From Escherichia phage T5: a stretch of DNA of 64,000 nucleotides. The translations under genes were made by a program, and so were the position numbers. The stretch lies in sequence record AY587007.1; one strand, 5' to 3'. Below the pieces are notes generated by a model that did not search any database, had not been told where the DNA came from, and was given only the letters and a program-made list of their open reading frames with translations. This document shows, one piece after another, positions 5,441-64,000 of the stretch (its first letter is position 1; every line of letters starts with the position of its first letter).

Positions 5441-6145
5441 ATGGCTGGTTCTCGCAGAAAGAAACATATCCATGAAATCCCGGATGAAGTCTTTAAAAAA
5501 GTTATAGAGCATCTGGAAAACGGTGGTACTAAGAAAGCAGCATGTGAAATGCTCGGCGTATCATCCAATCCAACTATGGAAAGGATGATTGAAGAGTGGC
5601 AAGACCGCCAGATTCAAGTTGCCGAAATGAAGAAAAAGAAACGTGGTACACTCATTGAAGGTATTGAGTTGGCCAACGTTATTGAACAGTATCTATCTGG
5701 CGATTCTTTCGAAGAGATTGCCGATCGTAATTACCGCTCTGTAGCAATGGTTAAATCTGTTCTGGAACGCTATGGTGCTCTGCTTCGTTTGAACGATATT
5801 GTAGATCCATTGAATCCACCAATTATTCCTGATGATGCTGTAGCAGAAGAATTTGAGGTAGGTGAGCTTGTTTGGGTTCCTGGATACCAGTGTATTGGTG
5901 AAATCAAAAAAGCAATGGATAACCCTGTTGGTTGTTACCGTGTTTGGCTTCTATCAGAAGGCAAACAACAGAACGTTCATTATATGAATTATGAGCTGGC
6001 CTCTGTTAAACACCTGGAAAAGTTAGGGGTTGATGTAAAATCTCTGGGGTATAAATGGACTCGGGAAGAAGTCATTACGTTGATTAACGAAGCTGTTAAG
6101 GCCGCCTTGAAACTTGATAAAGAAAAAGGAAAACGCCGTGAGTAG
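5441..6145 (+). CDS. hypothetical protein, possible DNA-binding
   Basis: 234 aa directly downstream of a strong promoter and RBS; N-terminal segment GGTKKAACEMLGVSSNPTMERMI is helix-turn-helix-like. Confidence 0.5.
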   Translation: MAGSRRKKHIHEIPDEVFKKVIEHLENGGTKKAACEMLGVSSNPTMERMIEEWQDRQIQVAEMKKKKRGTLIEGIELANVIEQYLSGDSFEEIADRNYRSVAMVKSVLERYGALLRLNDIVDPLNPPIIPDDAVAEEFEVGELVWVPGYQCIGEIKKAMDNPVGCYRVWLLSEGKQQNVHYMNYELASVKHLEKLGVDVKSLGYKWTREEVITLINEAVKAALKLDKEKGKRRE

Positions 6146-6389
6146 ACTAACTGATTTACTTAAAGATGGGGAAGTAAAAACACTATATCGTAGAAGCTGG
6201 GATAACGATAATAACGGCTTAGTGTTGCTAACTTTAGATGCTGACTCGGATGTAGCTACTCAGCATACCTGGGTAGCCGGTAATTATCCATATAGCGAGG
6301 TTGTTTCATTAACAGTATGCGAAGCTATTGCAGACGATTGGGAGGTTGCCAGCATTGAGGGTATGCTCGCTGTTGGCCTGGTGGAGTAA
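6114..6389 (+). CDS. hypothetical protein
   Basis: 91-aa track ORF; likely true start is GTG at 6139 preceded by AAGGA, overlapping the end of the upstream gene. Confidence 0.35.
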   Translation: MIKKKENAVSRLTDLLKDGEVKTLYRRSWDNDNNGLVLLTLDADSDVATQHTWVAGNYPYSEVVSLTVCEAIADDWEVASIEGMLAVGLVE

Positions 6390-6406
6390 CTACTTAAAAA
6401 TTTCAG

Positions 6407-6435
6407 TTGCTTAATCCTACAATTCTTGATATAAT
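6407..6435 (+). promoter_or_regulatory. sigma70-type early promoter (TTGCTT, 17 bp, TGaTATAAT)
   Basis: TTGCTT 6407-6412, TATAAT 6430-6435; a second TGTATAAT at 6462-6469 lies just upstream of the ORF at 6493. Confidence 0.5.
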
Positions 6436-6492
6436 ATTCTCATAGTTTGAAAGAACTATTCTGTATAATTCTTAATTAAGGAAATATAAAAT

Positions 6493-6903
6493 ATGACTAC
6501 TCCAACTCAGTGGACTGATGAACTGTTCGAAAAAATGTCTTCCGAATACGTTGCTCGTATGGAGCAATTCCCAGAGGATGAACGTCCGGGTGTTAGCATG
6601 GAAATTGTTAGCGAAATTGCCCAGGAAAATGGTGTAACTCCGAACGGTTTTCGTATGAAGCTGACTAAAGCAGGTTTGTATATTAAGAAAGCTGCTGGTT
6701 CTACTTCTAAATCTAGCGCATCTACTGGAGAAAAAGCTTCCGGTGGTTCTCGTACCTCCAAAGCTCAAGCCCACGCCGACCTTCGCGCAGCATTCTCTGA
6801 TGCTGGCTTAGCACCAGATTTTCTGGATGATGCAATTATCGACAAACTGACCGGTAAAGCGGCTGCTCATCTGGCAGAAGCAATCCGAGCTATCACTAAG
6901 TAA
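6493..6903 (+). CDS. hypothetical protein, codon-optimised, putative DNA-binding
   Basis: 136 aa; strong bias to E. coli major codons (CTG, CGT, GGT, GCT) unlike neighbouring genes; motif NGFRMKLTKAGL resembles the repeats in ORF 9629-10396 and in A2. Confidence 0.55.
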   Translation: MTTPTQWTDELFEKMSSEYVARMEQFPEDERPGVSMEIVSEIAQENGVTPNGFRMKLTKAGLYIKKAAGSTSKSSASTGEKASGGSRTSKAQAHADLRAAFSDAGLAPDFLDDAIIDKLTGKAAAHLAEAIRAITK

Positions 6904-6939
6904 TTTTAGATAAATCCACCAACAAAAGGAACTATAGCT

Positions 6940-7236
6940 ATGACTAAAGCTGAAATTATTGCACAGTGCGAAAAATTGGGTGAGTTTTATCTTCATTACG
7001 AGAAACTTCGTCAGAAAGGAACCACGTACCTTCAGGGTACAATGGAATTTGATCCGGCCCAAGATAAATATCTGGCTGAGCGTATTAAACGCGAACGTAT
7101 TCGTAAAGCGAAAGATGATGAAATCCTTGTCTTCTCTCGTACTAATGATAGCTTCCGTTTTATTCCTGTCGAGAAAGTCCGTCGTGTGACTAGCCTCCAA
7201 TCAGAGTTAGATCGTGCTTCTCCAGTAGGCCGATAA
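6940..7236 (+). CDS. hypothetical protein
   Basis: 98 aa, GGA-rich RBS region, same orientation as the early operon. Confidence 0.45.
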   Translation: MTKAEIIAQCEKLGEFYLHYEKLRQKGTTYLQGTMEFDPAQDKYLAERIKRERIRKAKDDEILVFSRTNDSFRFIPVEKVRRVTSLQSELDRASPVGR

Positions 7237-7286
7237 GAAAACAATTAGCCCCTATATGGGGCTTTTGGTGTATTGGGGATATGTAA

Positions 7287-7595
7287 ATGAGCGAACAGGT
7301 AAATCAAAACTATGAAGGACACGTTGATGACCAGTCCATCATACTTGGGGAGAAGGAGGGGGAACAAGTAAGATTAACAGTATCTGAATTTCGTGGGAAT
7401 CTATACATGGGTATTCGTTACTGGCTTCTTGATATTAATGATGAATGGTTTCCAACGAAATCTGGCTTCTCTTTTCCTTACACCCTAGAAACAACATCAC
7501 AGCTTTTCTATGCGTTTACACAGATTCTTAGCGAATCTGAGGTTTTACATGAAGTACAGAAACGAGCTGAAGAACTCAAAGCCAAGAATGCCTAG
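7287..7595 (+). CDS. PC4-like single-stranded DNA-binding protein
   Basis: 102 aa; segment LTVSEFRGNLYMGIRYWLLDINDEWFPTKSGFSF matches the conserved core of the PC4/YdbC fold (F-x-G-x-x-Y-x-x-IR-x-W ... P-T-K-x-G-x-S). Confidence 0.5.
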   Translation: MSEQVNQNYEGHVDDQSIILGEKEGEQVRLTVSEFRGNLYMGIRYWLLDINDEWFPTKSGFSFPYTLETTSQLFYAFTQILSESEVLHEVQKRAEELKAKNA

Positions 7596-7612
7596 TTCTT
7601 GGCTTTTTCTTT
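7578..7612 (+). terminator. rho-independent terminator
   Basis: 11-bp perfect stem AAAGCCAAGAA / TTCTTGGCTTT with 7-nt loop, followed by a T-run; overlaps the stop of ORF 7287-7595. Confidence 0.6.
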
Positions 7613-7622
7613 ATAAATGTAT

Positions 7623-7651
7623 TTGCTTTCAACTCAGTTTTGTTATATAAT
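7623..7651 (+). promoter_or_regulatory. sigma70-type early promoter (TTGCTT, 17 bp, TATAAT)
   Basis: TTGCTT 7623-7628, TATAAT 7646-7651, then ATTTATATAAATTAATGAGAGA and ATG at 7683. Confidence 0.55.
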
Positions 7652-7682
7652 ATTTATATAAATTAATGAGAGATATAAATAA

Positions 7683-8654
7683 ATGACTAATGTAAAAGAA
7701 TTTATTAAACGCTGTCAAGAAGCATATTATCAAGGCATGTCTTTAATCTCTGATGAAGAATATGATCGCCTGGTAAAACGCTTCCCGTTAGAGGAAGAGA
7801 TCGGGCCTAAGGGTGATATTCCACATCTATATCGTATGTATTCTTTACAGAAAGTTTACTATAACCGTGGTGATAAACCACCATTCAATCCTTTAGGTCA
7901 GGTGGAAACCGATAAGTTAGATGGTTGTGCAATTTCTCTGCTATATATTAACGGCGAATTTGTTCAAGCATTAACCCGCGGTAATGGTATTCTGGGGAAT
8001 GATGTCACAAGCAACGTAAGATTGCTGAACATTCCTAAAAAGATTTCCCAAAAAGTACCTACTCAAATCACTGGTGAAGTTCTAATTACAAAAGAAGTAG
8101 AAAATAAACGTAACTTTGCCTCTGGTGCTATTAACCTCAAAGATAGCGATGATTTCGTACAACGTATCGGGGAAGGTGGTTTAATCTTCGTTGCATACGG
8201 TATCCAGTGTTCTGCTGAATCTGTAGGTATTACAGAAGCATATTTAAAAGATATGCTTTGGCTAGAGAATGAGAACTTCTTAACAGTTGTTAATGTGCGT
8301 TCCTTCTTTAAATGGATTCCGACGGACGGTAAAGTTGTTCGTATTAATGACAACCACCAATTCTTCCGTGAAGGCTGGACTAATAAATTCCCTCGTGGAG
8401 CATTCGCTATTAAAGAGGATGAAGAAGGCGAGATTACAACTCTTACTAAAGTTGAATGGCAGGTAGGGGCTTCGGGTAAAGTAACTCCAGTTGGTTATTT
8501 TGAACCGGTAATTATTGATGATGCTACAATTGTTAAAGCAACTCTTAATAACGTTGATTATATTAACTCTCTCGATCTAGAGATCGGTTGCCAGATTCGA
8601 GTGATTCGTGCTGGTGGTGTAATCCCGTGCATAGTAGAGCGAGTATACGATTAA
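7683..8654 (+). CDS. NAD-dependent DNA ligase, N-terminal part (adenylation and OB domains)
   Basis: 323 aa; adenylation motif KLDGCAISLLYINGEFVQALTRGNG (KxDG) and OB-domain end IRVIRAGGVIPCIVERV are collinear with bacterial LigA. Confidence 0.8.
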   Translation: MTNVKEFIKRCQEAYYQGMSLISDEEYDRLVKRFPLEEEIGPKGDIPHLYRMYSLQKVYYNRGDKPPFNPLGQVETDKLDGCAISLLYINGEFVQALTRGNGILGNDVTSNVRLLNIPKKISQKVPTQITGEVLITKEVENKRNFASGAINLKDSDDFVQRIGEGGLIFVAYGIQCSAESVGITEAYLKDMLWLENENFLTVVNVRSFFKWIPTDGKVVRINDNHQFFREGWTNKFPRGAFAIKEDEEGEITTLTKVEWQVGASGKVTPVGYFEPVIIDDATIVKATLNNVDYINSLDLEIGCQIRVIRAGGVIPCIVERVYD

Positions 8655-8704
8655 TACATAACCCTTTGCTACCCATCTACCATATCGGAATTATAAAGTG
8701 GTTA

Positions 8705-8733
8705 TTGACATTTTCGCCGCTTAGGTATATACT
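8705..8733 (+). promoter_or_regulatory. sigma70-type promoter (TTGACA, 17 bp, TATACT)
   Basis: Consensus -35 TTGACA 8705-8710 and -10 TATACT 8728-8733 in the gap between the two ligase ORFs. Confidence 0.45.
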
Positions 8734-8797
8734 ATTATCATTCAGTTGAGGGATAGAAAGTTATGGCGAGGGTAAGCCAAGTTAGTTAAAATTGTAG

Positions 8798-8826
8798 TTG
8801 CTAAATGCTTAAATACTTGCTATAAT
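8798..8826 (+). promoter_or_regulatory. sigma70-type early promoter (TTGCTA, 17 bp, TGcTATAAT)
   Basis: TTGCTA 8798-8803, TATAAT 8821-8826, then ATTTATATAAATTGATAAGGAAG and ATG at 8854. Confidence 0.55.
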
Positions 8827-8853
8827 ATTTATATAAATTGATAAGGAAGAAAT

Positions 8854-9636
8854 TTGATGAAAATCGAAATTCCAACACAATGTCCCTCTTGTGGTTCTAA
8901 GCTAGATCTTGTCAACGGACAATTATTCTGTCGTAATAAGTCCAACTGTCCAGCGCAATCAAGTAAGTTAATTGAGAACTTCTGTACAAAAATGAAGTTA
9001 AAGGGCTTTGGCCCGAAAACTATTGAGAAGCTGGAGCTGACGAAGATTTCAGAACTATTTTACCTAACCGAAGAAGATTTGGTTAGAGCCGTGGGTAGCA
9101 AGGTTGCCGCTAAGTTAATTAGCGAATTAAATACTAAAGTTCGCGGAGACATTGACTTTGGTTCAGTTCTCGGTTCTTTAGGAATCCCTCTAATTGGAGA
9201 GGTTGCAGCAAAGAAATTATCCCAAAATTGCACTAGCTTTCAAGATGTGAAGGCTGACGGCAAGGCTGGAGAAAACTATAAAGCCTGGCTAAATTCCCCA
9301 CAAGGCAAGGATGTAATCGAATTACCGTGGAAATTCTCAAAGGGTATTAAGGGTGCTAAAGCTGAGGTCATCATCACTGATGGTCTAGTAGCCCAGCCAA
9401 ATGGAATCACGGTGTGTATTACCGGATCTTTGCAAGATTTTGCAAATCGAACGGATGCAACAAACTATTTAGAAGGTCTAGGATATACGGTTAAGAAATC
9501 CGTTACCAAAGACGTCAAATGCCTAATCTGTGAGGATGAATCGAAGCGTTCTTCCTCATCTTATAAGAAAGCCGAAACGAATGGGATAGAAATCCTGTCG
9601 ATTAAAGAACTATTGGAGAAAAATAATAATGTCTAA
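8854..9636 (+). CDS. NAD-dependent DNA ligase, C-terminal part (Zn-finger, HhH, BRCT)
   Basis: 260 aa; Cys4 zinc finger CPSCGSKL...CRNKSNC at the N-terminus, helix-hairpin-helix-like middle, BRCT-like C-terminus ITGSL...DVKCLICED; collinear with the C-terminal half of LigA. Confidence 0.75.
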   Translation: MMKIEIPTQCPSCGSKLDLVNGQLFCRNKSNCPAQSSKLIENFCTKMKLKGFGPKTIEKLELTKISELFYLTEEDLVRAVGSKVAAKLISELNTKVRGDIDFGSVLGSLGIPLIGEVAAKKLSQNCTSFQDVKADGKAGENYKAWLNSPQGKDVIELPWKFSKGIKGAKAEVIITDGLVAQPNGITVCITGSLQDFANRTDATNYLEGLGYTVKKSVTKDVKCLICEDESKRSSSSYKKAETNGIEILSIKELLEKNNNV

Positions 9637-10396
9637 ACTGAACTGGAACGTAGAAGGTGTAACCGAGTCTCTGAAAGCAAAAGCCACTGCTCTGGGTGTT
9701 GATGTAATCTCTCAAGAACAAGTAGCTGCTATCGCTGCTGAACTGGCTGCTGAAACTGGCAAAGACGTTACCGCTCGCTCTGTTGGCTCTAAGCTGCGTA
9801 AAGAAGGTTTCGAAGTACAGAAAGCTAACGAAGTACAGAAATCCCCGTGGACTCCTGAGCAGGAAGCTGAACTGGTTGATTTCCTGAACGCTCATGCTGG
9901 TCAGTATACTTATGCTGAAATCGCTGCTGCTGTAGCTGGTGGTCAATTTGGTGCTAAGCAGGTACAGGGTAAGATCCTGAGTCTGGAAATGACAGCATCT
10001 GTTAAGCCGACCGAAAAAGCTGCCGCTGTTCGTTCCTTCACTCCGGATGAAGAAACTGACTTTGTTAATCAGGTTGTTGCTGGTGCTACTATTGAAGCTA
10101 TCGCTGCTCACTTCGGTCGCAATATTAAGCAGATCCGTGGTAAAGCTCTGAGTCTGCTTCGTGAAGGTCGTATCGCGGCTATGCCGGTACAGGAAACTTC
10201 AAGTGCTAAAACTCGTGAAGATCTGCTAGAAGGTCTGGATCTGGTTAACATGACCGTTGCTGAGATCGCTGAGAAAACTGGTAAGTCTGAGCGTGGTGTT
10301 AAATCTATGCTGTCTCGTCGTGGTCTGGTTGCTAAGGACTATGATGGTGCCGCTAAGCGTGCTAAACTGGATGCAAAAGCTGCGGCTGCTGAATAA
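9629..10396 (+). CDS. repeat-containing putative DNA-binding protein (abundant early protein, possibly D5-like)
   Basis: 255 aa; four internal repeats (e.g. TARSVGSKLRKEGFEV, GAKQVQGKILSLEM, KQIRGKALSLLREG, VKSMLSRRGLVAKD); very strong major-codon bias suggesting high expression. Confidence 0.5.
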   Translation: MSKLNWNVEGVTESLKAKATALGVDVISQEQVAAIAAELAAETGKDVTARSVGSKLRKEGFEVQKANEVQKSPWTPEQEAELVDFLNAHAGQYTYAEIAAAVAGGQFGAKQVQGKILSLEMTASVKPTEKAAAVRSFTPDEETDFVNQVVAGATIEAIAAHFGRNIKQIRGKALSLLREGRIAAMPVQETSSAKTREDLLEGLDLVNMTVAEIAEKTGKSERGVKSMLSRRGLVAKDYDGAAKRAKLDAKAAAAE

Positions 10397-53820: not shown

Positions 53821-53930
53821 TTGGGAAATCTCGAAATTTCATAAGATTACACATGAAGGTGTGTCCACTGCCTCCGGCGAAAATACTTAGTCTGCTAACC
53901 GCCACCCCCGTTACTATTACCATGCTAACT

Positions 53931-53967
53931 GTTTCACCCTGCAACCATTTTAATTGCAGGGTGAAAC
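53931..53967. other. stable hairpin (14-bp perfect stem) between convergent genes
   Basis: GTTTCACCCTGCAA / TTGCAGGGTGAAAC with 9-nt loop; no U-tract on either strand. Confidence 0.5.
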
Positions 53968-53984
53968 AATTTCAACTTTAATTA

Positions 53985-54719
53985 TTACGCAACTTTTAAT
54001 TTCTCAATATATTGTTGCGGGCTGCAACTATATTCTGCGCGTTCTTCTTCGGTCATACCTTCCCAACATAATTGCAGGCGGTCGGCTAGGAACTGATAAT
54101 CATTATCATCCTCAAGAGATTCATCAATAAAGGTTTCACCTATCAATGTCACGCCGATTGATAGAATATCATTAACGGCTTGTGCGTCCAGCGTTTTAAA
54201 TCCGTATGACGCTGCCGCTGATAGCACGCCTTTATGATCATCAATCATTGTAAAATCAGCGTTCGGATATAATTGTTTGAATAGCCCAAAATAGTAACTT
54301 TTATAAACTGCGTCTTTGCTGTGGTATATCTCGCTAACTTTATCAGCCTCAAAATATTTGTGTAGTGTATCGCGGGAAAATACACGGATATTACTATCAC
54401 CACGACCGCGCAACCCTTGTTTACGCAAATAATAATAGTCCGACTTGCTCATTAGTCGAGCGGTGCAAATAATGTTTAAAGTATTTGCGTCATTCATGCA
54501 CTGGCGCATATATGTAACAAGGGGCAATAGTGTATCTTGCATTATTAAATCATGTTTGCAGGCTTCATTTTTATACTTATTTAAATCTAAATTGCCCTCG
54601 CTATCAAAGCAAGGCGCTACACGATGAAACGAATTAATGATAGTGCCGTCCAGATCCCAAATCATGACGCGGGAAATATGCGGGAAATTACGGGTAATAT
54701 TCGTTTTAACTTGATTCAT
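53985..54719 (-). CDS. dmp: HAD-family 5'-deoxyribonucleotidase (Dmp-like)
   Basis: 244 aa; HAD motif I IWDLDGTII near the N-terminus; first gene of the minus-strand pre-early block. Confidence 0.7.
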   Translation of the reverse strand: MNQVKTNITRNFPHISRVMIWDLDGTIINSFHRVAPCFDSEGNLDLNKYKNEACKHDLIMQDTLLPLVTYMRQCMNDANTLNIICTARLMSKSDYYYLRKQGLRGRGDSNIRVFSRDTLHKYFEADKVSEIYHSKDAVYKSYYFGLFKQLYPNADFTMIDDHKGVLSAAASYGFKTLDAQAVNDILSIGVTLIGETFIDESLEDDNDYQFLADRLQLCWEGMTEEERAEYSCSPQQYIEKLKVA

Positions 54720-54799
54720 TTTGTTACGTTCTCCATTTGAGGGATTAGATTAATTCAGCATTACCCGCTATTAAATAGCGGGTAATAATAAATTAACTA

Positions 54800-55195
54800 T
54801 TAAAGGCCATACGCTAGCGCATCAGCGATAAAACTAACATCCTCGCCCGATACGCTGGAACGAATGCCAGCGCATGTATACACCTTTGCGCTCATTAGCT
54901 GATCATCAAGGCAAGCGGGGCAAGGTGCGACTACTGCGAAAGCTAAACCGGATTTTACCGCGTCAATAATGATTGTTTCCTGTTTCATAGTGTCAACATA
55001 AACACCTTTTGCTTTAATATGGCTTGTTAGTTTGCCCTGCATATATGCAAACGTTGTAACTTGCATCGCGTCATTGAAATCTAATAGCTCATCAATAACG
55101 TGACCGGCCTCGACGTGATAACGCTGACCATTAGAATAAACCAGAACAATAGAAGACTGAGCGCGATCGAATGGGATACGGTTAGATTTAGCCAT
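54800..55195 (-). CDS. hypothetical pre-early protein
   Basis: 131 aa; contains a PCPAC motif but no convincing family assignment. Confidence 0.45.
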   Translation of the reverse strand: MAKSNRIPFDRAQSSIVLVYSNGQRYHVEAGHVIDELLDFNDAMQVTTFAYMQGKLTSHIKAKGVYVDTMKQETIIIDAVKSGLAFAVVAPCPACLDDQLMSAKVYTCAGIRSSVSGEDVSFIADALAYGL

Positions 55196-55231
55196 GTTTA
55201 TAACTCCAATTAGTTTAATAAGGGATTTAAT

Positions 55232-55510
55232 TTATTTGCTAGCTTCAAGACTTACAACAAAAGCGAGATTTGTTTCTTTCCATACGTCAGGAATATCATT
55301 TTCCTGTAAATGGTCTTTCGCTTCATACTCATTTTCAAAAGAATAAAAATCGCCGGACTCAATTATATAAATATGCCCGTTTAGTTCATTTTGATAAATA
55401 TAACAATTATTATCTTTTAAATTGCGGTATACAGTACCATGCCGTAAAACATCAAGCGACCATGTATCAGCGGTGTTTTTCATGCTGGGAAGATTAATTT
55501 TAATAGCCAT
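55232..55510 (-). CDS. hypothetical pre-early protein
   Basis: 92 aa between the A1-like and 131-aa genes. Confidence 0.4.
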   Translation of the reverse strand: MAIKINLPSMKNTADTWSLDVLRHGTVYRNLKDNNCYIYQNELNGHIYIIESGDFYSFENEYEAKDHLQENDIPDVWKETNLAFVVSLEASK

Positions 55511-55566
55511 TTAATTTAGCTCCTGTAATAGCGGCTATATCTCAAGCCGCTAGGGGAATAATTTAA

Positions 55567-57150
55567 TTACGCAAAGAATTTACCATTCTTAAAGTCAATC
55601 AAAGTGCGTTGACCGTTTGCATAGGTAATAATATGCGTTTGAGTCCAGCTAGACGCGCCAACGTTGTAACCCATGTCCAGACTACCAGTCACGCCAGCGG
55701 TATAAACGCCGCCGTAAATGCTGGCGGTGTGGGTGTGTCCGGTGTTTAATTTGCCCAATTTCTTAAACTGTTTCGGGTTGCCACGGCTCCCGTTAATGCC
55801 GTTGTGACCGTGTACGCCGCATTCAATGCCTGCAATCTTGAAAGATTGGTCAGTGGTCAGGAAAATGGCGTTAAATTCACAGCCTGCAACCTTGCGCAGC
55901 GCATAATCAAGCACGTTAAAAGTATCGTCTTTTTCTGCAATAGCTCCATAAATCGCAGCATTCAGGCGGTGATATAGTTCCGCGTTTGCTGGGTCGTCTT
56001 TAATGTTAGCATTACGATCATCTAACCAGCGGGATAGCGCCAGATCATGATTAGATTCAACAATGATTGTTTGAGAAAAATCACGCTCCATTGATTCCAG
56101 TACGCGCCCCGTATCGATAAGATCATCTAATACCTTATCACGTCCGGCGGCATATTGTTTCGCTAGGAATACGCCAGATGCGCGGTTGTGATGGTTGCGT
56201 GATGTAAAATCATGCACGTCGTGTACAAACTGATATTTTGGTTTAAGAATATCAACAAGCCCGTAGGTGTCACCATGCCCCCAAGACGCAGCGGCGCACT
56301 CCTCATCTAATTTTTCAGCGTGAATGTCGCCATATTGTAAACCTAAAACGTGCCCCGTTGTTTCATAACATCCGGCAGGAGTGGCGCAAGTATTCAAATC
56401 ATAAAACACGCCGCTCTCGTCCATCGTTTCAAGCTGGCGCACAAAAAACTCACCGTCCTCGTCAAACTCAACAATAAGCGCACCGAAGTTATGCAGCGCC
56501 TCGGCCTTTTGTCCTGCTTTCTGCTGGATGTAATTTTTTAGCGTTGCCGTTCCGGTTGAATACATACGGCGCACAATTTCACCTTTTAAAGCTGGCACGC
56601 TTTCGGCGGTGATTTTAGCCGCTCCAATTGCTAGACCTTCAAGATTCAGCGCGGTTGCAGTTTCAGCGAATCCAGAAAGCGGATAATCTGCGGTGGGTAA
56701 AACGTTAATTTCAGCCATGAAAGCAAATCGGCGATTATTTAAAAACACGTTTTTATTGCAGATATATTTGTCAAATGCGGAATCGTATCTGATACCGTCG
56801 GCGCCCTCGCCATTTTGAAAACCGTTTTTGTTATAGATAAACTTGCTAACCAGCAAATCAGCGCCGATAAATTGGGCGTATTGTTCAAGTGAGGCTAAAA
56901 AGTTTTTATGCGGGAACGTATTATTCTGAATCGATGTAATAATAAAGCGTTTACCTTGTTTTACTTCCCATTGCTCAACCGTGCTAGAAACAATCCCCGC
57001 CGCTTCTGGGCGCTCATCGTTTTTAATGGCTTTTGCTACTTTCGCCGCTTTCGGTTTCGCTGGTTTATTTGCTTCCAGCCAGTCACAAATTGCGGTAGAG
57101 TGTTTTGTTGTATCGTAAACCATTTTTGAAATATCGTCGCAAACTTCCAT
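55567..57150 (-). CDS. A1: metallophosphoesterase-family pre-early protein (A1-like)
   Basis: 527 aa from ATG 57150; phosphoesterase motifs GDIHAE, ESNHD, GVHGHNG, TGHTHTAS; an upstream ORF with a good RBS overlaps in another frame (see findings). Confidence 0.75.
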   Translation of the reverse strand: MEVCDDISKMVYDTTKHSTAICDWLEANKPAKPKAAKVAKAIKNDERPEAAGIVSSTVEQWEVKQGKRFIITSIQNNTFPHKNFLASLEQYAQFIGADLLVSKFIYNKNGFQNGEGADGIRYDSAFDKYICNKNVFLNNRRFAFMAEINVLPTADYPLSGFAETATALNLEGLAIGAAKITAESVPALKGEIVRRMYSTGTATLKNYIQQKAGQKAEALHNFGALIVEFDEDGEFFVRQLETMDESGVFYDLNTCATPAGCYETTGHVLGLQYGDIHAEKLDEECAAASWGHGDTYGLVDILKPKYQFVHDVHDFTSRNHHNRASGVFLAKQYAAGRDKVLDDLIDTGRVLESMERDFSQTIIVESNHDLALSRWLDDRNANIKDDPANAELYHRLNAAIYGAIAEKDDTFNVLDYALRKVAGCEFNAIFLTTDQSFKIAGIECGVHGHNGINGSRGNPKQFKKLGKLNTGHTHTASIYGGVYTAGVTGSLDMGYNVGASSWTQTHIITYANGQRTLIDFKNGKFFA

Positions 57151-57277
57151 TTAGTAGCGCGCAGACGTTTACCGTAGAAATTAAAGTCAGCGGCCATTTT
57201 CAGGATAACGGTTTGTTTTTCTGCGGAAATAACCATAATAATAAAACTCCATTAAAGGGATTAAAAAACGTTTGTTA

Positions 57278-57293
57278 TTGGCAATATTGCCAA
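57278..57293. promoter_or_regulatory. perfect 16-bp palindrome TTGGCAATATTGCCAA (operator-like)
   Basis: Exact inverted repeat read directly, in the intergenic region upstream of the A1-like gene. Confidence 0.4.
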
Positions 57294-57332
57294 ATATAAC
57301 GCCTTGAATAATAGGCGTTATAATTTGCAACA

Positions 57333-57530
57333 TTAATTTAAAGGCATAAGGCTAGAACTAACACCACAAGCAACGGCGGCAATAAAACAAATCAGACCTA
57401 AACGCTTTGCTAACTTAGATTTACGTTTAAAATAATACGAATCTAAATCATTTTGAAAATAAGCGAACAATAACGAGGCCGCCATAATAAACAAGCCTAG
57501 AATGAGGGATTCAGTAGGGTAAAAGATCAT
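57333..57530 (-). CDS. small membrane protein
   Basis: 65 aa with two hydrophobic segments (LILGLFIMAASLLFAYF and LGLICFIAAVACGVSSSL). Confidence 0.4.
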   Translation of the reverse strand: MIFYPTESLILGLFIMAASLLFAYFQNDLDSYYFKRKSKLAKRLGLICFIAAVACGVSSSLMPLN

Positions 57531-57586
57531 TTTAAAACTCCAGTCAAAGGGAAATTATAGTGGGGAATATTCCCCACTAATTAAAT

Positions 57587-57994
57587 TTATTCGCCTGCGG
57601 CTTGTTTTACTTCATCGGCAACGCCTAACAGTTGCGCCACGGCGTCCAGCGTTTCCAATTTTGCACTTTCCAGTGATGCCAGATCGTCAGCGTCTTTGAT
57701 AATACCGGAATCGATGGCATGTTTTGCAATCACACGCACGTAGTGCGCTTTGCGGATAGAACTGCCGCCGCCAACCTTGCGAGGTTTATCGCTTTTCTGA
57801 TACGCTTTCGCGCTGGTCAATTTTGAGCGAACAGACACGGGAGAAGCCGCGCCAACTGCTTTTGCAATCTCTTTTAAACCGTCGCTATTTGCGAAATCTA
57901 AACCGTTTTCATTAATTAACTGCTGGTACATGGAAACAGCTTTCTGAGTGTTTTCTTCATTCCAAGCGAATTTTGCGGTTTTAGCGTTAGTCAT
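57587..57994 (-). CDS. A2: A2-like DNA-binding pre-early protein
   Basis: 135 aa directly upstream of the A1-like gene; motif SPVSVRSKLTSAKAYQK resembles the repeats in ORFs 6493-6903 and 9629-10396. Confidence 0.5.
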   Translation of the reverse strand: MTNAKTAKFAWNEENTQKAVSMYQQLINENGLDFANSDGLKEIAKAVGAASPVSVRSKLTSAKAYQKSDKPRKVGGGSSIRKAHYVRVIAKHAIDSGIIKDADDLASLESAKLETLDAVAQLLGVADEVKQAAGE

Positions 57995-58089
57995 GATGTA
58001 ACTCCTGTTTATTTAATTTAAGGGATAAGATTAACATAATGTTAATCGTTATATCCCCCGAACTACTGGGGGATATAAAAGTAACACTA

Positions 58090-58341
58090 TTACGCTACGG
58101 CTTCCCATTTTTCGTTACGCTGGGCAACCTTTACAACGTCGCCGGATTTAACCCGAACGTTGTAAACAGTTTTTCCGTTGTTACTCCGTTCCGTTTCAGC
58201 GTATACCGCATCAATTACATCAAACGGCATAAGCGCCGCGCCTTTAATGCGTTCGGTTTTTCCGGTTACCTCATCCGTTTTAGTAACGAAAGGGATAAAA
58301 ACGGATTGACCAATTTTTGGCGCAGTAGTAACGTTTTGCAT
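58090..58341 (-). CDS. hypothetical pre-early protein
   Basis: 83 aa; GGAG about 13 nt upstream of the ATG. Confidence 0.4.
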   Translation of the reverse strand: MQNVTTAPKIGQSVFIPFVTKTDEVTGKTERIKGAALMPFDVIDAVYAETERSNNGKTVYNVRVKSGDVVKVAQRNEKWEAVA

Positions 58342-58574
58342 AATATAAACTCCAGTTTATTAAGGGGGATTGTTCCGCATTACCTGCTGTAAAAGTAGTG
58401 GCAGGTAATAAGCAACAATCCGCTCGCCAATATAATCAATTTAAAGAACTCCACTCAGGCCGCTATATCCCAGTTAGGGGGCGGGACACATTATGGTAAG
58501 TGCCGACCGTCATATTTTATCAAGTTATCGCTCTCATCGAACTGGGTACATCTTAAAGCCTATCGGCTAGGGTG

Positions 58575-58778
58575 TCAAACTATTTTTTGCAGTTTTTTAT
58601 GATTTTCTTTCAAGTCAATCATAATGTTTCGCCAGATCATTTCCAGACCTTGCTGGCGGCCTTTCTTGTACTGCCTAAATCGATATTTTACCGATTGCTG
58701 GGCTATTGTCAACAATTTTTTAGTAGTACCATCTAATTTTTTAGCTGGTTTACCAGTGATCAATAAAGTTTGTTTCAT
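58575..58778 (-). CDS. hypothetical small basic protein
   Basis: 67 aa, Lys/Arg-rich; AAGGA upstream; weak support. Confidence 0.3.
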   Translation of the reverse strand: MKQTLLITGKPAKKLDGTTKKLLTIAQQSVKYRFRQYKKGRQQGLEMIWRNIMIDLKENHKKLQKIV

Positions 58779-59329
58779 ATCGTCGATTCCTTATAATATA
58801 TAAGTTTACCGCCGATAGACTTTAAGATGTACCCAATTTTTAAAGAGCGTGGCGGTAAACTTCCCGCCGTGTAGTTCGTCATTGCCGCCCTACGAGATAA
58901 ATAATAGGGGATACCCAAAAATGGCGCAACCTTATTTTTGTAAAGAAACGTAAAGAAGGCAACACGTCCGGCGCTCACCTAAGTTTAAAGGAAACGGGCG
59001 CGCGAATACCATAAAACCTAGCAGGTTGGCAAGTAATTTTTTCCTTTATATTTGCCTTGCCCTAGTTGACAAATCTTAGAAAGCTCGTGGTGACGATAAA
59101 CGGGTTATCCCCTTATGATGGGATGCCTGAAAAATTTACCGCGTCAGAAAGCGTTTTAGGCGGCTTATTTTCGATTTAACAAATATTTAACAAAAGCAAA
59201 ATTGAAAAATAGTTGGAAAAGATATTGACTTTTAAAAATCAAGACTAAACGAGTTATTTTATAAAATTAATTAATTGACAATTCCAAATTCAGCTTTTTT
59301 AGTTTCTACCCATAATAATAACTCTTGTA

Positions 59330-59714
59330 AATCATAACCTGATTTACTAACACTTTTGTTACTAGTAGGATCTTTAACTATAGCGCGCAAATAGTTTCTT
59401 CCGGTTATTATCAACTCTAGAACCATTATAATAGATATGCTTAGGCAACTTATTAGCACGGTTACGATCATTATGATCGATTGTTAGATTGCTATCAATC
59501 TCACCATTAAATAATACCCATATTATTCTATGCACTGCGTATGTTCGCCTGCTAACTTTACTCGATAGTAACCTGTGTTACTATAATGCCCTGCAATATC
59601 ACCCACCTTACTATTACCTTTCTGTACTTTCCATCTTAGAAATGATGGGGATGTTTCATCATAATAAAAGTTATCATTAGCAAGCGAATAATCTATATCT
59701 TTAAATAGACCCAT
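59330..59714 (-). pseudogene. decayed HNH-type homing endonuclease remnant
   Basis: Track ORF 59523-59714 has a homing-endonuclease-like N-terminus (ETSPSFLRWKV...GYYRVKLAGEH) and stops early; an HNH-like segment (LTIDHNDRN...RVDNNR) continues in another frame at about 59390-59520. Confidence 0.45.
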
Positions 59715-59883
59715 TGTTATAGTTTCCTTATGTTATTAATTTAATCTCTATTATATTATATCAAAACCATTAGCAAACTACCTAATGAGTTTTTCAGGTT
59801 TAATTAGCAGACTCATAATCACTTTAAAATCCTATTAGCCAACTAACTATATTTTGTTATATAATAACTGCATAAATTAGTTA

Positions 59884-60013
59884 GTGAGAAACACTATCAT
59901 TTAAGTTATCCACAGCCTTATACATTTTGTAAATTAACTTGACACAATAGGAAGGCTTTATAGCACTTTTACACAGACTTATCCACAGGTTATTCCACTG
60001 TATAAATATACAG
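59884..60013. repeat. left arm of a ~130-bp inverted repeat pair (two DnaA boxes plus an SOS-box-like palindrome)
   Basis: TTATCCACA at 59906-59914 and 59979-59987; CTGTATAAATATACAG at 59998-60013; outer and inner segments are near-exact reverse complements of 63193-63322. Confidence 0.75.
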
Positions 60014-60277
60014 GGTAAATGGAAGACATATTATAATGATGCCCAAAATAAGCGGCCTAAAACGCTTTCTAACGAGCCAAACGCTATAGGGTAATATTAA
60101 AGTAAAGCCTCACGCGTCGCCTGGTGGCTTCGCCGTGTTTTGCTCTTTACTATACCGCTGCGCGGTTAGCATAAAACTAGGCGCTAGGCAAGGAAAATAA
60201 AAAGGTAAAATAATATTTGCCTATGCTAGAAAATTACCTTTATCATTCACTCACCGATTAACGAGGGAGGCCAACAA

Positions 60278-61015
60278 ATGCGGCTATATAAACCAGATAA
60301 CGCAACCGTCTTAAAGGGCGCCTTGCGCAACCTGCTGGATGGTAGCAGGACAACCAGCATTAAACATTTTATTAACAAGGCTGAAACTATTCACCAAAAC
60401 TTTTTTAATGATTATGATGCCTATGATATGGATAGTTTTCTACCCCTATATAAGCAGGGGGCAACGATTATCTTATATAATCGTGATTGCCATATCTTTA
60501 CGGGCAGGGGAGCGGGGCCGGATACTGATTTTATTGTTGCGCAGGGTAATAATATCGTTGCGTATCATAGCAATTCAGGCCGTCAATCATTTAATATAAA
60601 TAATTTTGAGCTTGTTGGGCTTGAATTAATAAACGGACTTTCTAGCCTTGAGGGATTTTTAGATGTTATCTGGAAGTATTTATCTGCTGGATGGCATAGA
60701 CCTGATAGTGATGGATCTCAATATACGGCTGTAATGGCTTTTGATGGCGACGGTAATTTTTTATTACCATCGGAATTATATCCGTATGTATATAATGAGC
60801 TAGTACAAGAAGCGGGTTTTATTTTCTGGAAAGATGAGAATCAGATCATTGACAACACGGAAAAACATGCTGTAAATTCTAACACTCAAAGCGTTAACAC
60901 TCAAATCACTGAAAACAAAGGAAAAAATGCCATGACCAAGATCGCTAATATCGTTGCCGCTAATAAATCCGCCGTTGTAAATGCTGCAAAACTGGAAGCG
61001 GGCAAATTGCATTAA
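60278..61015 (+). CDS. hypothetical protein (first gene of the inverted-repeat-bracketed operon)
   Basis: 245 aa; GGAGG 7 nt upstream of the ATG. Confidence 0.5.
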   Translation: MRLYKPDNATVLKGALRNLLDGSRTTSIKHFINKAETIHQNFFNDYDAYDMDSFLPLYKQGATIILYNRDCHIFTGRGAGPDTDFIVAQGNNIVAYHSNSGRQSFNINNFELVGLELINGLSSLEGFLDVIWKYLSAGWHRPDSDGSQYTAVMAFDGDGNFLLPSELYPYVYNELVQEAGFIFWKDENQIIDNTEKHAVNSNTQSVNTQITENKGKNAMTKIANIVAANKSAVVNAAKLEAGKLH

Positions 61016-61053
61016 CTCAAATCACGAAAGTAGCGGCTAAAAAAGCACCATTT

Positions 61054-61287
61054 ATGATTAAAGGTTATATTGATACGCCTATTGGTCGGGTAGTTATTGC
61101 TAACCTGCTGAGCGTAGCGGTTGACCAGTACGCCCCTAGCAACCAAAAGGCGAAAGCGGTAGCGGGTGCAGCTATGGAAGCGGCTATGCTAGAAATGGTG
61201 CAAAGTTTTAACATCGCTGAAATGATTGATGAAATGGTGAAAGGTATTGATATTTCTACTTTTACCGTTAACACCGAAAGCGAGTAA
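61054..61287 (+). CDS. hypothetical protein
   Basis: 77 aa track ORF; weak RBS. Confidence 0.35.
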   Translation: MIKGYIDTPIGRVVIANLLSVAVDQYAPSNQKAKAVAGAAMEAAMLEMVQSFNIAEMIDEMVKGIDISTFTVNTESE

Positions 61288-61405
61288 TAATTAACCTAAT
61301 GTAAAGTTTTGTAAAGGTCGCCATAATCGGCGGCCTTTTTTGTTATAATGCCTTTACACCGTTTGAGGACGGTTGAAAATTTTCCCAAAATTTTGGAGGC
61401 TTAAA

Positions 61406-61636
61406 ATGGTTGCTTATTCTTCTTCTGACGCTCTTTTCACTGGAAAAGGCTGGGTATCAAATCGCTGGATCATTCAAGAAATGGTGCAGGAGTTCGGCAT
61501 TGCTAAAACTTACACTACCATTCAGGCGCTTTATGATAATGATCAAATCGATCAGCAAACGGCGGGCTTTTCGCTGGATACCCTGAAAGCGGAACACTGT
61601 ACTAAAAAACAAGCCGCCAAAATTGTTTTAATGTAA
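61406..61636 (+). CDS. hypothetical protein
   Basis: Trimmed from track ORF 61373-61636 to ATG 61406, which has GGAGG 6 nt upstream. Confidence 0.45.
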   Translation: MVAYSSSDALFTGKGWVSNRWIIQEMVQEFGIAKTYTTIQALYDNDQIDQQTAGFSLDTLKAEHCTKKQAAKIVLM

Positions 61637-61685
61637 TTAATAACGGGGCGTTACTTTCGCCCCACTAACTAGGGGAGTATTACAA

Positions 61686-61865
61686 ATGGTTATTTTTCGA
61701 GCTATTCTGGCAGGTATCTTGGGCGCTATTCTGACCCTTTTTGCTACCGCTTACGGTATTCAAGATTCTTATTGTGGTTTAGTAAATACTAAACCTATGG
61801 TTATTATTGGCGCGGGTATCGCTGTATTTTCTTATCTGCTGGGCTGCATGAATAAAGGAGAATAA
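61686..61865 (+). CDS. small hydrophobic membrane peptide (59 aa)
   Basis: Below track threshold; MVIFRAILAGILGAILTLFATAYG...MVIIGAGIAVFSYLLGCMNKGE has two hydrophobic helices; its stop region carries the RBS of the next gene. Confidence 0.4.
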   Translation: MVIFRAILAGILGAILTLFATAYGIQDSYCGLVNTKPMVIIGAGIAVFSYLLGCMNKGE

Positions 61866-61867
61866 AA

Positions 61868-62080
61868 ATGATCCGCAACGTTTCTCTTGCTCGTTCAAAG
61901 GGTTTTAAGCTGGTGGATGTTAACACATTCGAGCGGGAAGATTGTAAAATCGAATATGTAGCACGTAATAAAAACGCCTTTCGTGTTACAGAAAAGAAAT
62001 TTGATAAGCGCGGCAACGTGATAGCTGAAACGGTTAAACATTTTGCCACCTTTTACGCGGCTTTTCGTGGAGTGTTATAA
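61868..62080 (+). CDS. hypothetical protein
   Basis: 70 aa; AAAGGAG RBS upstream. Confidence 0.45.
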   Translation: MIRNVSLARSKGFKLVDVNTFEREDCKIEYVARNKNAFRVTEKKFDKRGNVIAETVKHFATFYAAFRGVL

Positions 62081-62081
62081 A

Positions 62082-62426
62082 ATGGTAATTTATGAAGGCA
62101 ATCGCTTTGTTGCTATTTGCCGACCGGGATTATTAGCAAACTACTTAAATCAGGTGTCACCTGAATATAAAGGCGTCATTAATATTTATGAGGGCAAGGC
62201 GCATTATAAGATTAATGCGGTCGTTGCCCGTGAATTAGCATTTCAATTTTTGACTTTCGCATCTTGTGATATTCAGGTCATGGGTGAAGCGTTAATTGCA
62301 GAAAATGAAGATGATTTTATTAATATCTTCCGCAAGGTATACACCGAGCGCCTGATAATGAAAGGCGCATATATTCAGTCAACTGCGGAAAGTATTGAAA
62401 CAGCTTTCAGAAAGGTGGCGCAATGA
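62082..62426 (+). CDS. hypothetical protein
   Basis: Trimmed from track ORF 62043-62426 to ATG 62082, directly after the upstream stop; GGAG 9 nt upstream. Confidence 0.45.
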   Translation: MVIYEGNRFVAICRPGLLANYLNQVSPEYKGVINIYEGKAHYKINAVVARELAFQFLTFASCDIQVMGEALIAENEDDFINIFRKVYTERLIMKGAYIQSTAESIETAFRKVAQ

Positions 62427-62518
62427 AGCTATATATTTTCGTTGGTAATGTTGAGGCTGCGAATGATTCCGCTGGTGGCGATAACGTTCGCCACTATTGG
62501 CAAAAATATATTTACTAG
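62423..62518 (+). CDS. hypothetical small peptide (31 aa)
   Basis: ATGA overlap with the upstream gene and AGGTGG RBS; weak evidence. Confidence 0.25.
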   Translation: MKLYIFVGNVEAANDSAGGDNVRHYWQKYIY

Positions 62519-62525
62519 GGTTATT

Positions 62526-62720
62526 ATGATTACACTGATTTGCGTTAAAGCCGAAGGCGACACGATAGCGCGAGAAGGGCAAAAATATAAAGCCCAAAAA
62601 GATCAATTACTCAAAACAATTGAGCGTTACAAAATACCCGATCTCAAGTATTCCGTAGTAGGACGCGATGGGATTCTAAGGGCGACACTTGAGAACGCTA
62701 TCTTTGAGATAGTCAACTAA
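62526..62720 (+). CDS. hypothetical protein
   Basis: Trimmed from track ORF 62442-62720 to ATG 62526. Confidence 0.35.
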   Translation: MITLICVKAEGDTIAREGQKYKAQKDQLLKTIERYKIPDLKYSVVGRDGILRATLENAIFEIVN

Positions 62721-62735
62721 TAACGGGGCGTTATT

Positions 62736-62939
62736 ATGAGCAATAAAATTATTGTGACCAAAACTACCACAATGGTAGACGTTTTTTATGTGCCCGATAC
62801 GCCGGAGAATCGGGGAGCGGTCGAGCGGGGCGAGTATGATAGCGTTATTTATGATGCCGATGGTTATTATCAGCATTTGGTCGATTCCTACGGGGAAGAG
62901 GAGAAGATCACGCATCGATTACCCGAGGGGGATTTATGA
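62736..62939 (+). CDS. hypothetical acidic protein
   Basis: 67 aa track ORF. Confidence 0.45.
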   Translation: MSNKIIVTKTTTMVDVFYVPDTPENRGAVERGEYDSVIYDADGYYQHLVDSYGEEEKITHRLPEGDL

Positions 62940-63049
62940 AACGATGGTTTAATCACTGGTATAAACGGTTTTTAGTACGGCATCGCAAGTCTAGACAGCA
63001 AGATGATTGGCGGGAAATGGCCAAGCGTAACAATTGCCCACTTCTCTGA
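62936..63049 (+). CDS. hypothetical small basic peptide (37 aa)
   Basis: ATGA overlap with the upstream ORF; followed directly by a terminator. Confidence 0.3.
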   Translation: MKRWFNHWYKRFLVRHRKSRQQDDWREMAKRNNCPLL

Positions 63050-63055
63050 TAACCG

Positions 63056-63078
63056 ACGGGGATCAGCTCCCCGTTTTT
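63056..63078 (+). terminator. rho-independent terminator closing the small-gene operon
   Basis: ACGGGGA-tcagc-TCCCCGT hairpin followed by TTTTT. Confidence 0.65.
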
Positions 63079-63192
63079 CACGCCTCCAGTTAAATCCCCC
63101 TTTGTTTTAGTATCCCCATCAAAATTAAACGCGTTAGAATGCGATCTAGGACGTTTTAGGCATATATTAGAATTATTCACTGCGTAGGAATA

Positions 63193-63322
63193 CTGTATAA
63201 ATATACAGTAGGATAACCTGGGGATAAGTCTGTTGATAACGCTTCAAAATGGCTAGGATTTTGTCAAGGCGAATCGTGCTGTTGATAAGTCTGTGGATAA
63301 CTTAAATAACAGTGTTTCTCAC
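63193..63322. repeat. right arm of the inverted repeat pair (DnaA boxes plus near-consensus SOS box)
   Basis: TGTGGATAA at 63292-63300; TGGGGATAA at 63219-63227; TGTTGATAA at 63231-63239 and 63280-63288; CTGTATAAATATACAG at 63193-63208 within TACTGTATAAATATACAGTA (63191-63210). Confidence 0.75.
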
Positions 63323-63327
63323 TTCCG

Positions 63328-63491
63328 TTTTTAAATACGAATCATTATCATTCGTATTCCGCTTTTTAAATGAGAATCATTCCGCTTTTTAAATGAGAAT
63401 CATTTCACTTCCTGAATAGTTCTCATTCCCTTTCTTAAATGAGAATCATTATCATTTGCATTTCACTTTTTAAATGAGATTGATTCTCATT
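63328..63491. repeat. array of five direct repeats of ~19 bp (TTTTTAAATGAGAATCATT)
   Basis: Copies begin at 63328, 63363, 63386, 63431 and 63467 with spacings of 23-45 bp; two copies extend into palindromes. Confidence 0.75.
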
Positions 63492-63543
63492 ATCATTCGC
63501 ATTCAGGCGAGCAGGCAATTGCCCTGCGCTTTTGTGCAAATCC

Positions 63544-63766
63544 GACATTTGCCCCCATGGATTACGCGTGGGCGTGTATGTGCAAATCCGACAATTTTTG
63601 GTAGTGTGCGAATCCGACCCGAAAAATTTTTATAGTGTGCAAATCCGACAATGAATTTTCCCAAAAACTCCAGCAATCACGAACTGCGTTCGAATCCTGT
63701 GGAATTAGCTAGAGTATGTGCAAATCCGACATGTGTTGAGATGTGCGAATCCGACAAGATTTTTGT
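63544..63766. repeat. array of six to seven direct repeats of 14 bp (GTGC[A/G]AATCCGAC[A/C])
   Basis: Copies at 63544-63557, 63590-63603, 63616-63629, 63647-63660, 63728-63741 and 63753-63766, plus a degenerate copy near 63689-63700; all in the same orientation. Confidence 0.75.
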
Positions 63767-63769
63767 GAC

Positions 63770-63960
63770 TTCGATGGGAGGGTGTGTGATTGTATGGGTT
63801 TGAGGGGAAGATGAGAGAGCGAGAGAAATTTGGGAGGCTAGAAGGATATGGGCGCAGGATTGGTGCGGAGCACCTGATTTGCGGGGATTTTGGGGAAGAG
63901 TTGAGATAATTTGGGAAGATTTGAGATAGGTGCAGAAAAAGTAAAATTTTATTAGCTAAA
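63770..63960. other. purine-rich, cytosine-poor tract with short TTTGGGA(A/G)G / TTTGAGATA repeats
   Basis: Plus strand is almost entirely G/A/T over ~190 bp; the minus-strand track ORF here is a low-complexity artefact. Confidence 0.5.
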
Positions 63961-64000
63961 GGGGGCAAAATAGCTTGACAAGTGAAAATTTCTGTGGATC

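Follow-up and report, generated by a model that had tools for sequence, protein, structure and literature searches.

Near-consensus predicted LexA operators joined to DnaA boxes at the first-step-transfer boundary of phage T5 and its relatives

LexA operators (SOS boxes) of Escherichia coli, including those of umuDC, sulA, recA, dinD, and the colicin genes, share the 20-bp palindrome TACTG-(N10)-CAGTA and a set of tolerated variants. LexA also controls the switches of temperate phages, namely CTXphi and coliphage 186 (tum). Among mobile elements, GIL01 uses the host SOS repressor through consensus boxes, and the integron integrases are a further LexA-controlled counterpart. In these elements, LexA times induction or recombination from a resident state. 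At oriC and other DnaA-oligomer sites, 9-mers of the same orientation are located approximately 11-12 bp apart beside AT-rich DNA. Here, we describe two boxes with the E. coli palindrome and the same tolerated variants in Escherichia phage T5 (sequence record AY587007.1; the 64,000 nucleotides analyzed are hereafter called the window). Both boxes are located in the repeats of the injection stop signal (iss) region, published for the same DNA (Davison, bioRxiv 10.1101/866236), where they form the inner 16 nt of the elements IRD and IRD'.

Unlike the E. coli SOS boxes, the T5 boxes are found in an obligately lytic phage and have no demonstrated promoter beneath them. They are also fused to arrays of DnaA boxes and duplicated as the tips of 131-bp inverted repeats. 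Like GIL01, T5 would use the host SOS repressor through consensus boxes; unlike the temperate elements, it has neither lysogeny nor an evident regulated gene, and its sites lie at a boundary of DNA entry. The DnaA 9-mers of T5 are arranged as in oriC, but the LexA operator sits where oriC has its unwinding element, and origin function is not evidenced in T5. Beyond the published iss work, the palindrome is recognized here as a predicted LexA operator, and its conservation is traced to lineages with approximately 32% identity of the A1 protein.

The two boxes are as follows:
59996-60015 (core 59998-60013): A1-proximal (left) LexA box CACTGTATAAATATACAGGG, core an exact match, heterology index 4.7.
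63191-63210 (core 63193-63208): iss-proximal (right) LexA box TACTGTATAAATATACAGTA, core an exact match, heterology index 0.8-1.0.

The core CTGTATAAATATACAG was originally predicted at both of these places, and both copies were found to be exact. The right 20-mer differs from the E. coli LexA consensus TACTGTATATATATACAGTA by one central base, just as had been stated. For scoring, LexA operators of E. coli known from the literature, 29 in number, were used to build a heterology index; four of them (recA, lexA1, lexA2, and umuDC) were confirmed verbatim upstream of their genes in the MG1655 genome. With its index of 0.8-1.0, the right box beats all 29 operators used (range 1.3-10.3; umuDC, 1.26) and scores like the tightest of them, while the left box is similar to the recA operator (4.9). 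After these two, the best site in the window has an index of 8.9. The original prediction was to be given up in the case of a poor matrix score; both boxes instead score as excellent operators. Each is a palindrome with an AT-rich center, falls in the index range of E. coli operators, and has half-sites that are more constrained than the center.

At up to two mismatches, 0.04 chance matches to CTGTATAAATATACAG are expected, and the observed number was reached in none of 100 shuffles. The strict pattern CTGT-N8-ACAG was found five times in the window, versus 0.82 expected. In shuffled related loci, no site with an index below 5 was found in 8.5 Mb. A chance origin of the boxes is thus effectively excluded, although the two boxes are arms of one inverted repeat (pairs I1 and I2) and are not independent events. 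LexA sites had been called unexpected in an obligately lytic phage, and we agree that their presence is unusual.

Both boxes are parts of larger repeated modules, and these modules bracket a dispensable gene cassette:
59883-60013, plus strand: 131-bp inverted repeat IRC-spacer-IRD (Repeat Region 2; 6022-6152 in the numbering of Davison), with the LexA core as its last 16 nt.
63193-63323, minus strand: 131-bp IRD'-spacer-IRC' (Repeat Region 3, annotated injection stop signal; 9332-9462 in the numbering of Davison), with the LexA core as its first 16 nt.
59906-59914, 59967-59975, and 59979-59987, plus strand: DnaA boxes of the left repeat, TTATCCACA, TTTTACACA, and TTATCCACA, respectively.
63208-63239, minus strand: three phased DnaA-type 9-mers, GTAGGATAA, TGGGGATAA, and TGTTGATAA, adjoining the right box.
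63280-63300, minus strand: distal DnaA pair of the right repeat, TGTTGATAA and TGTGGATAA.
60278-63049, plus strand: accessory pre-early cassette (T5.011-T5.017 and a small open reading frame, ORF), located between the boxes, transcribed toward the right box.
63053-63078, plus strand: intrinsic terminator at the cassette end, 113 nt before the right box, annotated in AY543070.

The left arm and the reverse complement of the right arm are identical at 93 of 131 positions without gaps. Outward from the cassette, each module starts with the LexA box, which is followed by two or three DnaA boxes in helical phase; beyond a 52-bp spacer, there is a second pair of DnaA boxes. DnaA, which the original prediction had named with LexA as a possible roadblock, thus has sites beside both boxes. 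The 9-mers beside the right box are spaced 11-12 bp apart, as calculated from their coordinates, and GTAGGATAA, a weak DnaA-type site, overlaps the flank of the right box. In each arm, paired DnaA boxes are located 3 bp apart, and these pairs are kept in T5-like phages. Previous work on the injection-stop region described the DnaA pairs, the spacer of 52 bp, and numerous palindromes, and the LexA box is probably one of the palindromes listed there (Davison, bioRxiv 10.1101/866236). The right arm falls inside the iss feature annotated in AY543070 and AY692264.

A constant offset of 53,861 links the window coordinates to the AY587007 numbering used by Davison. The segment 59700-64000 of the window is 99.8% identical to positions 5915-10216 of the T5 terminal repeat in AY543070 and AY692264. 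The terminal repeat of AY587007, which we take to end at 10,139, would by this offset end on base 64000, and therefore the window would correspond to the last 64 kb of the T5 genome. From this we infer that positions 53862-64000 are the right copy of the terminal repeat, which enters the cell last, and that first-step-transfer (FST) DNA is the other, identical copy on the left. The original prediction had noted neither the inverted repeats nor this right-end location.

For comparison with other phages, 43 loci were retrieved via the A1 protein. The Demerecviridae sampled, including the distant phages named below, cover six of the nine named clades as well as unclassified members, and all their hosts are Gammaproteobacteria. 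Both boxes were found in all 37 close relatives with enough flanking DNA, and they were the only sites with an index below 8.5 in 13-21 kb. The LexA-DnaA module was found in every Demerecviridae lineage sampled, including phages of Escherichia, Salmonella, Klebsiella, Pantoea, Pectobacterium, Providencia, Aeromonas, and Vibrio. Among the distant phages, it is present in Pectobacterium phage My1, Klebsiella phage Roth37, Pantoea phage AAS21, Providencia phage PSTCR5, and Aeromonas phage AhSzq-1, as well as in Vibrio phages VCPH, VF16, VPT02, AG74, and 70E35.2. The A1 proteins of the Vibrio and Aeromonas phages are only 31-35% identical to that of T5. The iss-proximal box is near the consensus in all sampled lineages except Aeromonas, where it is weaker, and its variants (CTGG, CTGTAC, and TACACAG) are also known in real operators. 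The A1-proximal box is weaker in the relatives and degenerate (CTTG) in some of them, and PSTCR5 carries a single module. The distance between the iss-proximal module and the inner end of the terminal repeat is 0.5-1 kb in T5, My1, and VF16.

In a blastn comparison of the 10-kb T5 repeat with VCPH, the module was the sole nucleotide similarity (90% over 50 nt), and alignments of the more distant phages to T5 begin precisely at the box. With the VCPH module as the query, 587 phage records were matched, whereas no match to the module was found in plasmids or E. coli genomes; therefore, no known origin or SOS gene was the source of the module. No boxes were found in phages outside Demerecviridae that encode A1 (metagenomic loci L040-L045 and Shewanella phage KASIA).

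Comparison of the 28 distinct boxes demonstrated that positions T4, G5, C16, and A17 are invariant and that the half-sites CTGTAT/ATACAG are kept, while the center is variable (AAAT, ATTT, ATCC, or GGAT). The majority consensus of these boxes is TACTGTATATATATACAGTA, that is, the E. coli LexA consensus. In 2000 of 2000 replicates, random substitutions carried a higher cost in LexA index than those observed. All the host genera belong to groups sharing the LexA motif CTGT-N8-ACAG, which has been defined for Beta- and Gammaproteobacteria (PMC3323433). Such constancy of the half-sites fits the pattern that would be imposed by a conserved host protein contacting two half-sites. Conservation of this kind throughout the T5-like phages strengthens the original prediction.

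The centers of the two T5 boxes (AAAT) share one orientation, so that the boxes are direct repeats within inverted arms. In most relatives (L004-L039), the centers are inverted (AAAT versus ATTT), and the central dinucleotide is AA or TT, never the symmetric TA.

Host LexA very likely binds both T5 sites, because T5 DNA is unmodified and no E. coli site this near the consensus is known to escape LexA. Our preferred, still tentative, reading is that the boxes are high-affinity LexA operators maintained by selection, not as stand-alone regulatory sites but as parts of a composite docking module for LexA and DnaA, and that this module may form an architectural barrier at the border of the FST DNA. 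This is a version of the LexA/DnaA roadblock suggested in the original prediction. On entry of the left terminal repeat, LexA dimers already resident in the cell would occupy the iss-proximal module (63191-63323 in window coordinates) together with DnaA. The occupied module would be a stable nucleoprotein cap at the boundary of the FST DNA, a barrier or clamp that would keep RNA polymerase from crossing the module and might also restrain DNA movement. Occupancy of the cap would follow the LexA (SOS) state of the host. The iss-proximal module would not be a classical operator of the T5.011 operon, and the left copy would be an auxiliary duplicate. The calculated shear point at 9618 (Davison, bioRxiv 10.1101/866236) corresponds to position 63479 of the window, which places the module approximately 270 bp inside this stop point. 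We favor the barrier because a non-coding module is extremely conserved, because it is fixed both 0.5-1 kb from the repeat end and close inside the shear point, because its LexA box is fused to DnaA arrays, and because a conserved promoter or target gene is lacking. A stronger version, in which LexA and DnaA are the missing host component of the injection stop signal and the SOS repressor is a structural entry gate for a whole virulent family, appears improbable to us. Under this version, RNA polymerase or DNA movement would be blocked at the first-step boundary until the gate is removed by A1 and A2 or by the breakdown of host DNA.

Several points weigh against a LexA/DnaA barrier. The left LexA box is dispensable. 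According to a 2026 preprint, a T5 mutant lacking hegG through 017 is viable and forms smaller plaques. The deletion junction primers map to 59221-59253 and 62943-68 of the window, and thus approximately 59254-62942 is removed. The left repeat is lost entirely, along with its LexA box and the promoter of 011, whereas the right repeat is intact. This dispensability agrees with the single module of PSTCR5 and with the absence of the whole left repeat from some T5-like phages (Davison, bioRxiv 10.1101/866236). The boxes of the Aeromonas phage are weak, with indices of 6.7 and 9.4. Shared ancestry and copy correction between the repeat arms inflate the conservation statistics, which therefore overstate independence. 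Occupancy of the boxes by LexA is predicted throughout from their sequence, and the conserved phage protein A2 could be the real ligand of the box or of the neighboring motifs. Additionally, LexA is cytoplasmic, and halting of further entry from DNA that has already entered lacks a worked-out physical mechanism. Finally, T5 grows on recA1 cloning strains, and therefore LexA cleavage cannot be an obligatory step of infection. An SOS-gated restart that needs LexA cleavage was rejected as an obligatory mechanism on the same ground.

Other explanations of the boxes have to be weighed against this barrier, and the first of them concerns the following promoters:
60007-60037, plus strand: promoter-like match TATACA-16-TATTAT over the left box, together with TATAAT; 9/12 consensus positions.
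63172-63199, minus strand: mirror-image promoter-like match TATACA-16-AATAAT over the right box, reading inward; 9/12 consensus positions.
60217-60246, plus strand: probable actual promoter of gene 011, TTGCCT-18-TATCAT, with A-rich DNA upstream.

The main idea of the original prediction amounts to a classical SOS operator. In this explanation, LexA would repress inward promoters with their -35 elements inside the boxes, and a part of the pre-early program would be expressed only upon LexA depletion. The left promoter would be directed toward the leader of the T5.011 operon and the right one would be antisense to the cassette end. The perfect TATAAT is indeed present at 60032-60037, 18 nt past the left box, and both boxes overlap the mirror-image matches listed above. 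A -10-like hexamer was found 13-16 nt after the 20-mer in 11 of the 19 oriented modules (16% expected), including a perfect TATAAT at this offset in PSTCR5. The best support comes from the Vibrio phages, in which sigma-54-type promoters have secondary LexA-like boxes beginning 17-18 nt past their -12 element, where an operator would be placed. However, we consider this explanation unlikely. The proposal that the left box is the -35 element of a promoter for the small-gene operon found little support: the best match there has only 9/12 consensus positions, in AT-rich DNA; TATAAT is T5-specific and replaced in close relatives; and the viable deletion described above removes this box. The promoter annotated for gene 011 is located 200 bp downstream, inside the features at 6411-6489 and 6422-6490 in T5 records, and according to the literature, a promoter upstream of 011 is one of just three FST promoters characterized experimentally. 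In the literature searched, experimental support for the promoter over the left box was not found, nor were transcript starts or SOS-dependent data for T5. The -10-like hexamer is absent from the iss-proximal modules of Klebsiella and Pectobacterium phages, from Pantoea, and from several Tequintavirus modules. The right box is the universal one, and its inward transcript would meet no gene, only the convergent cassette and the terminator at 63053-63078. Moreover, a regulatory input that can be dispensed with would not usually have operators so near the consensus or be so extremely conserved. A somewhat less probable explanation is that the palindrome belongs to a phage protein, A2 or A1/A2, and that its likeness to a LexA box is incidental or a competitive mimicry. 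The palindrome could then be a binding site, a cleavage site for release or circularization in the model of Davison, or a recombination site for cassette swapping. Second-step transfer requires A2, a conserved DNA-binding protein; its putative recognition segment is conserved from T5 to the Vibrio phages, the repeats bracket a hypervariable cassette, and palindrome cleavage in the iss region has been proposed (Davison, bioRxiv 10.1101/866236). On the other hand, a 19/20 match of the family consensus to the consensus of one host repressor is very unlikely to be accidental, the tolerated substitutions (CTGG, CTGTAC, TACACAG, and the free center) are those of LexA operators, and the adjacent conserved motifs are also sites for a host factor, DnaA. 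LexA would also be expected to bind even where a phage protein does.

The module might also act in cis when the terminal repeat is replicated or processed. It could, for example, be a site of DnaA-dependent unwinding, or it could signal packaging or duplication of the repeat; LexA would modulate this activity, which would have no relation to the injection stop. The phased DnaA arrays beside an AT-rich element resemble replication origins, and the module is located 0.5-1 kb from the repeat boundary, beside tandem repeat arrays. Yet the T5 origins are located near the genome center (Davison, bioRxiv 10.1101/866236), and neither origin-like 13-mers nor initiator genes were found nearby, which leaves such a role with little probability. 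Least probable by far is the absence of any protein-specific function, that is, a chance AT-rich palindrome in a repeat, or a hairpin or cruciform. The two copies do share their ancestry as arms of one repeat, and the palindrome is able to fold; nonetheless, the shuffled loci gave no comparable site, and the half-sites are kept while the center varies across lineages with approximately 32% identical proteins. The hairpin or cruciform was rejected, its folding energy of only -3.9 to -4.9 kcal/mol being too weak.

The halt of T5 after injection of 8% of its genome, and the subsequent restart, have been a standing question since the 1960s. The cis signal for the stop has never been dissected, and the iss repeats as a whole have never been shown genetically to halt transfer in cis (Davison, bioRxiv 10.1101/866236). 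In the same work, family-wide conservation of the repeats and DnaA pairs was noted and host-factor binding was ascribed to DnaA alone, the sole host factor proposed so far; 'LexA' and 'SOS' do not occur in its text. Repeats, palindromes, and DnaA boxes that lie in the iss region are also credited there to Heusterspreute (1987) and Wang (2005). Full-text searches of the literature, apart from the 2015 review by Davison and the 1987 and 2005 sequence papers, found no link of LexA to T5 or Demerecviridae, and none of the hundreds of GenBank records among the matches listed carries a LexA-site feature. Thus, the LexA operator as a kind of element and the iss repeats as a region are already known, while the literature searched appears to contain no report of the LexA sites, of their joining to DnaA boxes in one composite architecture, or of the conservation of this architecture throughout a family of obligately lytic phages. 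A near-consensus LexA operator fused to DnaA boxes, from coliphages to Vibrio phages, provides a second concrete and easily testable candidate, and LexA may be an unrecognized host factor in the two-step DNA entry or pre-early control of T5. If LexA matters, this would be the first obligately lytic phage family that wires the SOS repressor into genome entry or immediate-early control. The outcome of infection would then be tied to the DNA-damage state of the host, which would be relevant to combinations of phages with SOS-inducing antibiotics.

An additional motif accompanies the boxes:
63128-63160, plus strand: companion motif CGTTAGAA..GCGTTTTAGG, inward of the right box; inverted pair I3.

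Further copies are located at 60045-60081 (minus strand) and 59135-59171, and related motifs were found beside the boxes in every lineage (L046-L055). Every LexA box has this motif, approximately CGYTTAGAA..GCGTTTTAG and often with CTAG, on its inner flank; in My1 and the Vibrio phages, a third LexA-like box directly adjoins the motif. The motif probably corresponds to IRB/IRB', and A2 is a candidate ligand. A2 is encoded at 57587-57994 (minus strand) of the window and at 4047-4493 of locus L047, and the proteins of T5 and VCPH are 31% identical. A conserved segment of A2, L.E.AK.VGA.S..(S/A)VRSKL.. (VGAxSxxSVRSKL), resembles a DNA-recognition helix. No Pfam family and no match among solved structures were found for A2. 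In a Pfam search of A2, the neighboring small ORF, and the cassette proteins, only DUF7566 (T5.011) was found, and no LexA-like or other DNA-binding domain. T5.011, a protein of 336 aa in AY543070, is broken into two ORFs in the window (60278-61015 and 61054-61287), which is consistent with the sequence differences that Davison reports for the Hangzhou record. Weak LexA-like sites, with indices of 8.9-9.8 in the range of the poorest real operators, are located at positions 14579, 11404, 47556, 45051, and 11073 of the window. An Rfam scan of 58000-64000 at permissive thresholds gave only a chance-level match to STnc320 (E = 0.07) and no known RNA.

The 52-bp spacer contains a hexamer TTGAC(A/G), at approximately 63262-63267 and at 59939-59944, in position -58 from the box. 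This hexamer is kept in all enterobacterial lineages, and a convincing -10 element at 16-18 nt is absent. At the equivalent place, the Aeromonas phage has the -12 element of a sigma-54-type promoter. Promoters of this type, with the consensus TGGCA[CT]-N5-TTGC[AT], are clustered in the pre-early and terminal-repeat regions of T5-like phages of Vibrio and Aeromonas, with up to 5 per 3 kb versus approximately 0.04 expected per 20 kb. The T5 window has none, and neither do the loci from the Klebsiella, Pantoea, and Providencia phages. The sites were found as follows:
Locus L047, positions 751, 3112, 3290, 3343, and 3636: sigma-54-type promoter sites.
Locus L049, positions 9289, 9559, and 11766: sigma-54-type promoter sites.
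Loci L054, L050, L052, L055, L060, and L046 (position 8017): further sigma-54-type promoter sites.

Some of these promoters in the Vibrio and Aeromonas phages face outward, and transcription from them would cross the LexA/DnaA module toward DNA still awaiting injection. For the Vibrio phages, this hints that transcription across the module could help to pull in the remaining genome in a T7-like manner.

Just beyond the right inverted repeat of T5, two families of tandem or dispersed repeats, ATTCCGCTTTTTAAATGAGAATC (5 copies) and TGTGCRAATCCGAC (6 copies), occupy 63321-63504 and 63530-63763. In the iss region, these families are the DRE/DRC- and DRD-type repeats. The major nick annotated at 7.9% maps to approximately 63531, among these repeats.

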